Source of the DNA: Candidatus Lloydbacteria bacterium RIFCSPHIGHO2_02_FULL_50_18
GTDB lineage: Bacteria > Patescibacteriota > Minisyncoccia > Phycocordibacterales > UBA6899
Assembly (NCBI GenBank): GCA_001821395.1
Contig: MHLM01000009.1
Span: 1-5,670, forward strand
Length of the DNA stretch: 5,670 nucleotides
Reading direction: 5' to 3'
A program made the position numbers and the translations under genes. Below, piece after piece: positions 2,605-5,670 of the stretch. The stretch's first letter is position 1, and each line of letters begins with the position of its first letter. The notes below the pieces were generated by a model, which worked only from the letters and a program-made list of their open reading frames with translations, did no database searches and had not been told where the DNA came from.

Positions 2605-3528
2605 ATGTTTATCATTAAACACAAGTATTTCTTTTTCTCTCTCTCGATCTTGCTCGTGCTTTCGTCGCTTTTCTCCATCGCGTTCTTCCATCCTTGGAAT
2701 TTCGGGATCGAGTTCACGGGAGGGTCGTTGCTTGAAGTCGGATACCCCAACGGCAGACCGGATGCAGGGGCATTGAAAGAGAAGCTCGCAACGCTTAATT
2801 GGGTCGGCACGCAAGTGCAGGAAACTGGAGCAGATGGTTTCCTGGTGCGCACAAAAGATCTGAGTGAGCCGGAGCGTCAACAGTTGATGTCTGTCGTTTC
2901 GGATAATGGCGGAACAACGATCGAAGAACGTCGCTTCAACTCGATCGGTCCGACGGTCGGAAATGAGTTGCGTACTAAGGCCGGCTGGGCGATCCTTTGC
3001 GTCATTCTCGCTATCGTTCTGTACATCGCATTCGCATTTCGCGGCGTATCCCACCCTATCTCATCATGGACATACGGAATTGTCGCTATCGTTGCGCTCG
3101 TGCACGACGTACTGATCCCGACGGGTATTTACGTTGCACTTGGCCACTATTACATCGATGTGCAGATTGATGTGCTGTTCGTCACCGCGATCTTGACCAT
3201 TCTCGGCTTCTCCGTGCATGACACGATCGTTGTGTTCGACCGCACGCGTGAGAATCTTAAGCTGCGCACATGGAAGGAATTCAGCGTAACCGTTGGTCAT
3301 TCGATCGAGCAGACGTTCGCCCGCTCTATCAATACGTCGATGACGGTGCTCCTCGTTATTCTTGCTCTCTATTTCGTTGGGGGAGAGACAACGAAGAATT
3401 TTGCACTGATCCTTGCTATCGGCGTCATTGCCGGTACCTATTCATCGATCTTCGTCGCTTCACCGCTTCTAGTTGCCGTCGAAGAATGGCAGCGTAAAAA
3501 GGAGGCAAAACATTCGAAGAAAAAGTAG
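2605..3528 (+). CDS. secF: Protein-export membrane protein SecF (307 aa)
   Basis: Starts 6 nt after the secD stop. Motifs GIEFTGGSLLEVGY, FSVHDTIVVFDRTRENLKL and LYFVGGETTKNFALILAIGVIAGTYSSIFVASPLL are typical of SecF. Stop TAG 3526-3528. Confidence 0.9.
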   Translation: MFIIKHKYFFFSLSILLVLSSLFSIAFFHPWNFGIEFTGGSLLEVGYPNGRPDAGALKEKLATLNWVGTQVQETGADGFLVRTKDLSEPERQQLMSVVSDNGGTTIEERRFNSIGPTVGNELRTKAGWAILCVILAIVLYIAFAFRGVSHPISSWTYGIVAIVALVHDVLIPTGIYVALGHYYIDVQIDVLFVTAILTILGFSVHDTIVVFDRTRENLKLRTWKEFSVTVGHSIEQTFARSINTSMTVLLVILALYFVGGETTKNFALILAIGVIAGTYSSIFVASPLLVAVEEWQRKKEAKHSKKK

Positions 3529-3542
3529 TTGTTTTATCTAAC

Positions 3543-3569
3543 AAAAACGCCCCTGTGGGCGTTTTTGTT
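3543..3569 (+). terminator. Rho-independent, potentially bidirectional terminator after secF: aaaaacgccc / ctgt / gggcgttttt, then gtt.
   Basis: 10-bp stem with a GC core (acgccc/gggcgt), 4-nt loop, flanking A-tract and T-tract; lies 15 nt after the secF stop. Confidence 0.7.
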
Positions 3570-3582
3570 CATGCGAAAGAAT

Positions 3583-3611
3583 TTGACTTTTCGTTATATT
3601 AAGAGTATAAT
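3583..3611 (+). promoter_or_regulatory. Near-consensus sigma70 promoter: -35 TTGACT (3583-3588), 17-bp spacer, -10 TATAAT (3606-3611). Predicted transcription start ~3618.
   Basis: 5/6 match at -35, 6/6 at -10, optimal spacing; sits directly after the secF terminator and 29 nt before the ATG at 3640. Confidence 0.6.
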
Positions 3612-3639
3612 AGAGTAGTAATAGATTAAACAAAAAATC

Positions 3640-3858
3640 ATGTCTATGGAATCACCAACTGCAGAATTTCAGTTTCCCGAGAGTAGTGTAAATATCTCAT
3701 CGGCGGTGGAAGTGCTGAAGAGGGCTGAGCAGGGTGAGGCGACGCGTGAGGAGATAAATGAGACCATTGGGACCCTCCGCGATCTCCAGAATCAGGGTAT
3801 CACCGAGCAGGCTCTCCAGATCGCCATCACTCGACTCATTGCTGCGCGCGGAGAATAA
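3640..3858 (+). CDS. Orphan small ORF, 72 aa, acidic, predicted helical (MSMESPTAEF...ITRLIAARGE). Function unknown; could alternatively be a non-coding RNA.
   Basis: ATG..TAA open frame bracketed exactly by a consensus promoter and a strong terminator. No Shine-Dalgarno (aaacaaaaaatcATG). Codon usage in the 3' half resembles secDF. No recognisable family. Confidence 0.4.
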   Translation: MSMESPTAEFQFPESSVNISSAVEVLKRAEQGEATREEINETIGTLRDLQNQGITEQALQIAITRLIAARGE

Positions 3859-3890
3859 ACGTTTTTTTAATATTATCCTCTCAAGAATGA

Positions 3891-3927
3891 AACAACCCCC
3901 CGAGCATTGCTCCGGGGTTGTTTATTT
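3891..3927 (+). terminator. Strong intrinsic terminator: aacaaccccccgagc / att / gctccggggttgtt, followed by tattta.
   Basis: About 14-bp GC-rich stem with a small internal loop and a T-rich 3' tail; lies 33 nt after the small-ORF stop. Confidence 0.7.
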
Positions 3928-4008
3928 ATCGATATTCTCGTTCCAATTTCTAGAATAAAGCTCTTTCGTCCACAGTTTATACACATAAGTGGGAATATCC
4001 ATAGCTAT

Positions 4009-4028
4009 CCACATATCTCGCTATGTGG
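4009..4028. promoter_or_regulatory. Perfect 7-bp palindrome ccacata-N6-tatgtgg centred ~30 bp upstream of the rrn -35; candidate regulator site.
   Basis: Inverted repeat read directly from the sequence; a direct repeat tatcca (3996-4001 and 4006-4011) lies adjacent. Confidence 0.2.
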
Positions 4029-4047
4029 TTGAGCCACCAATTTCCCC

Positions 4048-4075
4048 TTGACCGAAGAAAGTCGGCATGTATAAT
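4048..4075 (+). promoter_or_regulatory. rRNA operon promoter: -35 TTGACC (4048-4053), 16-bp spacer, -10 TATAAT (4070-4075), then a GC-rich discriminator GGCCAG typical of stringently controlled rrn promoters.
   Basis: Near-consensus hexamers ~270 nt upstream of the 16S 5' end; the discriminator resembles E. coli rrnB P1 TATAATGCGCC. Confidence 0.6.

Positions 4076-4341: not shown

Positions 4342-5670
<1,329 letters not shown>

Follow-up and report, generated by a model that had tools for sequence, protein, structure and literature searches.

A lineage-restricted small protein gene, probably transcribed as a unit of its own, between secF and the 16S rRNA gene in Candidatus Lloydbacteria

Between secF and the 16S rRNA gene of a Candidatus Lloydbacteria genome lies a very short ORF that is flanked by strong expression signals and is not preceded by a Shine–Dalgarno (SD) sequence. 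The question raised by this locus is whether it is a small protein gene or whether its transcript is a structured non-coding RNA in which the ORF is incidental. The earlier note left this choice open, and its arguments for an RNA were the strong promoter and terminator, the tiny size of the gene, the missing SD sequence and the adjoining rRNA gene. The analysis reported here indicates, with a probability of roughly 0.9, that this region contains one gene with transcription of its own, which encodes a real small protein. The combination of strong signals with neither an SD sequence nor a family had made the element look suspicious; on this reading it is an ordinary lineage-restricted small-protein gene, and nothing in it points toward a new kind of mechanism.

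Transcription signals and neighbouring genes

The window, that is, the whole stretch of 5,670 nt that was analysed, contains genes for SecD (approximately 1192–2598) and SecF (2605–3528), both identified with Pfam, and a bacterial 16S rRNA gene at 4342–5670, identified with Rfam. The small gene sits between the terminator of secF and the promoter of the 16S rRNA gene (TTGACC, 16 nt spacer, TATAAT; 4048–4075), with a distance of 190 bp from the small gene to this downstream promoter. The features of the unit are as follows.

3540–3569, + strand: intrinsic terminator of secF, a perfect 13 bp hairpin (AACAAAAACGCCCC-TGTG-GGGCGTTTTTGTT)
3583–3611, + strand: sigma-70-type promoter, with −35 element TTGACT (3583–3588), 17 nt spacer and −10 element TATAAT (3606–3611)
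3618–3645, + strand: predicted 5′ leader of ~27 nt, A/U-rich, unstructured and without an SD sequence
3646–3858, + strand: coding sequence of the small gene including the stop codon, for a 70 aa acidic protein (MESPTAEFQFPESSVNISS...RLIAARGE)
3885–3927, + strand: intrinsic terminator of the small gene, with an A-U-extended, GC-rich stem (3893–3921) followed by TTTATTTAT

The promoter had been described as near-perfect, and 11 of 12 consensus positions were indeed matched (TTGACA/TATAAT, with a spacing of 16–18 nt as criterion). Only two matches of at least 11/12 were present in the window, this promoter and that of the 16S rRNA gene, while in composition-preserving shuffles such matches averaged 0.07 per window and never exceeded one. 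Of the 15 loci of the gene family described below, 14 had a −10 element, TA(T/C)A(A/C)T, at the equivalent place, in most cases together with a TG extension and a −35 element of TTGAC or TTGCG. Transcription is predicted to start near 3618, and the quality of the promoter suggests that the product is probably made in quantity.

Both flanking terminators proposed previously were recovered. The secF hairpin had a predicted folding energy of −18.6 kcal/mol (z=−4.9), with none of 200 shuffles folding as well, and an equivalent hairpin was present 3′ of secF in a relative (L001). As this terminator lies between them, the small gene is separate from the secDF transcript. The downstream hairpin (−20.7 kcal/mol, z=−4.1) was overlooked on the + strand by a simple terminator scan because of a bulge. 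A hairpin occurred at the same position in relatives with different stem sequences, and compensatory pairs were observed as AU to GC exchanges at alignment columns 292/315 and CG to AU exchanges at columns 295/312. Scoring of the minus strand likewise classed this segment as terminator-like (CCCCGGAGCAATGCTCGGGG then GGTTGTTTCA), although on that strand there is no convergent gene to need it. The transcript would thus run from ~3618 to ~3927, and the earlier description as a self-contained transcription unit holds for this window.

The term 'rRNA operon', used in the earlier note for the downstream neighbour, did not hold. Only the 16S rRNA gene lies downstream; on a longer contig (L011:5147–14663), no 23S rRNA gene was found within ~8 kb of the 16S rRNA gene, which was followed by a tRNA gene (8236–8309) and protein genes only. 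The rRNA genes therefore appear to be unlinked in this organism, and the term to be a misnomer.

Conserved non-coding blocks were observed at 3950–4047, between the terminator of the small gene and the 16S promoter.

3977–3985: perfect DnaA-box-like TTATACACA, contained in the conserved block GAGAATAA-G-T-TTTC-TCCACAG-TTATAC-CA
4005–4013: conserved block CTATCCACA
Abutting the −35 element of the 16S promoter: invariant block TGTGGTTGAGCCA..AATTTCCCC

These blocks may represent rRNA promoter regulation or UP-element-like sequence; DnaA boxes were not significantly enriched across the window (6 matches versus 3.7 expected). At the other end of the window, the left-edge ORF (54–785; L012:1–7140) encodes the C-terminus of a very large NosD/beta-helix-repeat protein, whose length in the NCBI assembly is 3,778 aa or more; relatives have other genes at that position. 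A TATAAT box (1177–1182, within 1154–1194 of the window) lies 9 nt 5′ of the secD ATG at 1192, and the secD transcript seems to have almost no leader. A block near the secD start, TAATCCCC(A/C)TATTATGTGGAG, is kept in L002, L008, L012 and L017, and gene callers differ over this start, with products of 459, 468 or 510 aa.

Coding capacity of the transcript

The 72-codon ORF reported previously is present at 3640–3858, with an in-frame ATG at 3640 that adds two residues. This upstream ATG was found only in the window and L006. The start common to all relatives is the ATG at 3646 (MESP...), which gives a protein of 70 rather than 72 aa.

Evidence for coding was obtained from four distinct syntenic DNA versions of the locus, compared over the 213 nt coding region. 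Variable columns were distributed as 14, 9 and 53 over codon positions 1, 2 and 3, and dN/dS was 0.046–0.118 in five of the six pairs; in the sixth (window versus L001), synonymous sites were saturated, with a pS of 0.77 and a pN of 0.059. Across pairs, pS ranged from 0.46 to 0.77, near saturation, versus 0.06–0.13 for pN. The reading frame was intact in these four close DNA versions and in the 15 family loci, while the other five frames (two on the + strand and three on the − strand) had two to seven stops each in all four versions. Amino acid conservation persisted where the DNA was saturated, and the family extends down to ~35–40 % identity. The low dN/dS (0.05–0.12), the third-position bias and the protein conservation together show that this is a protein-coding gene under purifying selection, and the coding signature for which homologues were to be checked is thus present.

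An RNA signature was looked for in the same sequences. Under the alternative explanation, the ORF would be incidental to a structured non-coding transcript. With RNAalifold, 63 pairs could be drawn across the alignment of the four orthologous transcripts. However, the covariation term was +0.38 kcal/mol, the pairs inside the ORF were mostly invariant or broken, the few varying ones included non-pairing cells, and clean compensatory changes were confined to the terminator hairpin. Furthermore, the minimum free energy of the whole transcript was no better than that of shuffles (z=−0.7), and the 16S rRNA gene was the sole Rfam match in the window, even at E≤1. Together with the codon-patterned substitutions and the conservation of amino acids over saturated DNA, these results make a structured RNA extremely improbable. 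Of the two products envisaged by the earlier note, the protein stands and the structured RNA falls away.

The lack of an SD sequence was observed as described, with no GGAG, GAGG or AGGA within 40 nt upstream of the start of the small gene, but it does not count against coding. The 16S rRNA of this organism has the 3′ end ...GGAUCAAUUCCAAUUU, without CCUCC. Contig L011 holds the whole 16S rRNA gene, the same gene whose 5′ part is present at 4342–5670 of the window, and its 3′ end is GTAACAAGGCACGGGTAGCGGAAGCTGCTCGTGGATCAATTCCAATTT; at L011:6680–6697 the gene ends in ...GGATCAATTCCAATTT, with ATTCC in place of the anti-SD core CCTCC. The usual bacterial 16S tail, as in Escherichia coli, is GGATCACCTCCTT, and at this position the organism has GGATCAATTCC, so that the CCUCC core is lost. 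SD-like motifs at a functional distance were rare, being found at few of ~25 gene starts on this and related contigs, and several of these starts, including that of secD, lie 10–11 nt after a TATAAT box and are leaderless-like. According to Tsurumaki et al. (2022, RNA 28:1041, PMC9297842), only 48 % of Parcubacteria have an anti-SD motif. As the 16S rRNA is without an anti-SD and most genes are without an SD sequence, the missing motif is uninformative about coding; the SD-less start is a property of the genome and not of the small gene. In anti-SD-less Parcubacteria, a missing SD sequence is therefore unusable as evidence against coding.

The leader itself fits SD-independent initiation, as it is short, rich in A and U, and unstructured (3618–3660: −3.1 kcal/mol, z=−0.35). 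SD-less leaders of 26–40 nt with the same A/U-rich character were present at all 15 family loci. Several of them contained a GATTA-like motif, which was not universal. An alternative anti-SD pairing, through GGAAU or AAUUG complementary to the altered 16S tail, was considered and rejected, with nothing consistent found in the leaders; the GGAAU immediately after the ATG merely reflects Met-Glu-Ser codons.

The protein product and its family

The product is acidic, with a pI of 4.5 and a GRAVY of −0.4, and has no signal peptide and no hydrophobic segment. AlphaFold2, applied to shallow alignments of 4–14 sequences, placed helices at residues 18–28, 34–49 and 55–69 (mean pLDDT 78.6, range 77–79; pTM 0.60), in agreement with the acidic, helix-prone peptide that had been described. 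In this prediction, the N-terminal tail is disordered and the remainder of the chain forms a compact bundle of three helices. The tail carries a conserved acidic-aromatic motif, E-F-Q-F-P-E, which takes the form EFQFPE, QYPH or QYPY across the family, and conserved polar positions of the bundle are N16, E36, N38, Q48, N49 and R68. Tryptic peptides expected from the product include AEQGEATR, EEINETIGTLR and DLQNQGITEQALQIAITR.

The previous description of the product as having no recognisable family was true of curated libraries, with no member above threshold in Pfam, NCBIfam, PADLOC or PHROGs when all family members were searched, and in particular no match above threshold to a small-protein family in Pfam or NCBIfam. 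It is not a singleton, however, as syntenic homologues and a hypothetical-protein annotation exist. Translated from the ATG at 3646, the product shows 100 % identity to the NCBI hypothetical protein A2845_04175 (P0001) of Candidatus Lloydbacteria RIFCSPHIGHO2_01_FULL, and 89 % identity to UY09_C0039G0001 of the Parcubacteria group GW2011_GWA2_47_8, where the order of secD, secF, small gene and 16S rRNA gene is the same. Both are the same gene, and the sources give neither a function nor a family name for them. In all, the protein search gave three versions other than that of the window, with 84–89 % protein identity and all with the same secD-secF context, which makes up the four DNA versions compared above. 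An exhaustive profile search of 1.84 billion representative proteins yielded a family of 13 clusters (clustered at 50 % identity) at E≤0.001, seven of them at E≤1e-10; one of the 13, a 302 aa repeat protein, was left out as uninformative. Family members are 67–114 aa in length with a pI of 4.1–5.4 and share the core VNIS-A-EVL-RAE-G ... EEINE-IKTLQ-LQN-G ... TL-RLIAARG. Among species-representative genomes, one for each of 185,579 species, a scan with an alignment of 10 closer sequences detected two loci, both in Candidatus Lloydbacteria, and a metagenome scan added six more loci. Named sources of the family were only Candidatus Lloydbacteria or 'Parcubacteria group' assemblies. As far as these searches reach, no members occur outside Candidatus Lloydbacteria and its closest relatives (Parcubacteria, CPR). 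Lloydbacteria are uncultured bacteria known from groundwater metagenomes, and the identity to A2845_04175 places the window in such a CPR bacterium. The gene is thus already annotated as a hypothetical protein, and the family is small, uncurated and lineage-restricted. With ~13 clusters and no Pfam entry, it could become a new domain of unknown function.

Several sub-threshold similarities were considered and rejected. The Pfam family RNA_pol_Rpb2_2 (PF04561) reached 16.5 bits versus a gathering threshold of 21.7 (E=0.007) in 2 of 15 members. For a FIVAR/protein A-type bundle, FIVAR gave E=0.05 in two members and a PDB profile search E=0.12 at best, with nothing from Foldseek. The N-terminus of the product has what we take to be a superficial resemblance to the RNA polymerase omega subunit, but RpoZ/RNA_pol_Rpb6 (PF01192) had no Pfam or NCBIfam match at E≤1 in 15 members. 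Among anti-phage defence models (PADLOC), KwaB alone appeared, for 1 of 14 members (E=0.013).

Syntenic copies, for which a search in relatives had been proposed, were found. Of 15 distinct family loci, 13 have the small gene close behind secD-secF in the same orientation, a count that includes L006 and L008, in which a DUF6159 gene intervenes; the exceptions are L020 and L022. This association with secF reaches down to ~45–50 % protein identity. It is wider than the association with the 16S rRNA gene, which follows the small gene in the window subclade and the P0010 subclade (L001, L008, L016 and L030/L031) and was not found downstream of it in L017, L021–L025, L028 and L029, where 0.6–1.8 kb was searched depending on the contig. 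The same contigs encode SecF proteins that are 70–77 % identical over their full length and 87–90 % over the C-terminal part. As the source organisms are closely related, synteny is weak evidence for a function connected with SecDF.

Variation around the locus was also observed. The intervening DUF6159 gene (L006:4021–4932 and L008:3305–4216) encodes a 303 aa membrane protein, and the promoter of the small gene overlaps the end of its coding region. One relative has a 124 aa gene with the Pfam domain 23S_rRNA_IVP between secD and secF (L017:4137–4511). In sister clades, a second small ORF for an Ala-rich acidic protein of 71–90 aa lies 10–55 nt 3′ of the family gene, at the following positions.

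L017:5952–6194, second small ORF
L023:633–875, second small ORF
L024:684–938, second small ORF
L025:969–1241, second small ORF
L022:944–1159, second small ORF
L016:6362–6451, second small ORF

Three of five copies end in W-D-x-x-E/D-Q-x-R-R-G-F-N, and no Pfam match was obtained. This ORF is absent from the clade of the window, where the terminator occupies its place. A 157 aa Arg/Pro-rich ORF in L016 looks spurious. Three members of the family (P0009, P0015 and P0017; L017:5574–5918, L025:624–932) have an N-terminal extension of 25–45 residues with EAEGKC-x-HG-x5-7-C-x2-C in place of the acidic-aromatic tail motif, and this C-x-H-x7-C-x2-C segment may form a small metal-binding knuckle.

Possible functions and comparison with known systems

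In the proposed mechanism, the gene would be transcribed from the near-consensus sigma-70 promoter at 3583–3611, starting at ~3618 and ending at the terminator at 3885–3927. It would be insulated by the secF terminator on one side and by its own terminator, ahead of the 16S promoter, on the other. Translation would begin at the ATG at 3646, possibly also at 3640, without an SD interaction, as for most genes of the organism. The product would be soluble, consist of a three-helix module plus a flexible tail with the acidic-aromatic motif, and serve as a small adaptor or regulator through binding to another protein. Such binding is the most likely mode of action that we infer, and it is reached by exclusion: nothing in the protein looks catalytic, and its charge does not suit nucleic acid binding.

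The binding partner might belong to the Sec system, with the product acting as a soluble accessory at the cytoplasmic face of SecDF, SecYEG or SecA. The recurrent position behind secD-secF, its persistence at low identity, the wider reach of the secF than the 16S association and the putative N-terminal knuckle of some members are consistent with such a role. The C-terminus of SecA has a small zinc knuckle, of which that of the family is loosely reminiscent. However, at every locus the gene is served by a promoter of its own, and in the window the secF terminator precedes it, so that it is not expected to be co-transcribed with secDF. The DUF6159 gene in L006 and L008, the two members located elsewhere, the close relationship of the organisms and the absence of the family from all other secDF-bearing bacteria also speak against it, and a Sec accessory is a possible but unlikely role. 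A fuller version of this proposal, by analogy, would make the family a highly expressed, soluble, Lloydbacteria-specific SecDF/Sec partner, working with the second Ala-rich acidic protein in sister clades and with some members docking on the translocon or the ribosome by a SecA-zinc-finger-like N-terminal metal knuckle; this more elaborate picture is decidedly unlikely. The near-constant place downstream of secDF, the consensus promoter and the strong purifying selection make the gene a reasonable candidate for studies of Sec translocation and small proteins in CPR bacteria.

A link to the ribosome or its rRNA, either in ribosome biogenesis or in initiation on anti-SD-less ribosomes, is suggested by the 16S promoter downstream of the gene, by the loci in which a 16S rRNA gene also follows and by the lack of an anti-SD in the organism. 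An acidic protein is unlike rRNA-binding proteins, however, and there is a terminator between the gene and the rRNA promoter, while in several loci no 16S rRNA gene was found downstream. Moreover, about half of Parcubacteria have lost the anti-SD (PMC9297842) and the family occurs in Lloydbacteria only. In view of the acidity of the protein and of a family distribution far narrower than that of anti-SD loss, this link is less likely than that to SecDF, and it is regarded as highly improbable.

An origin as a remnant of, or acquisition from, a phage or mobile element has next to no probability, as the weak match to phrog_9139, a family of unknown function (E=4e-4 in 2 of 14 members), and the small, orphan, fast-evolving character of the gene are set against a tblastn search of 50,697 phage genomes with no hit, no relative in 2.9 million viral contigs, no structural match in BFVD at E≤0.001, no flanking repeats or integrase and a stable chromosomal place between housekeeping genes.

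A chromosomal small protein that binds another protein, as preferred here, can be compared with three known systems. In its predicted structure, the product had no Foldseek match at E≤0.001, and the closest fold class is that of generic three-helix-bundle binding modules (protein A/FIVAR-type, BAG domains, spectrin repeats and designed mini-binders). Among small proteins of the Sec system, YajC (PF02699) is encoded upstream of secD and has one transmembrane helix. The present gene resembles it in encoding a small protein beside secDF, but lies downstream, has its own promoter and encodes no hydrophobic segment. YajC was rejected as an identity for the product, with no Pfam match at E≤1 and with the wrong topology for a hydrophilic, acidic protein. 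The third comparison is with SD-independent and leaderless expression in anti-SD-less Parcubacteria (PMC9297842), a study that covers the rRNA trait and not the small gene. With a predicted leader of ~27 nt the small gene is not leaderless, in which it differs from the apparently almost leaderless secD. The likeness lies in a 16S rRNA without CCUCC and in the missing SD sequence of the small gene and of most of its neighbours.
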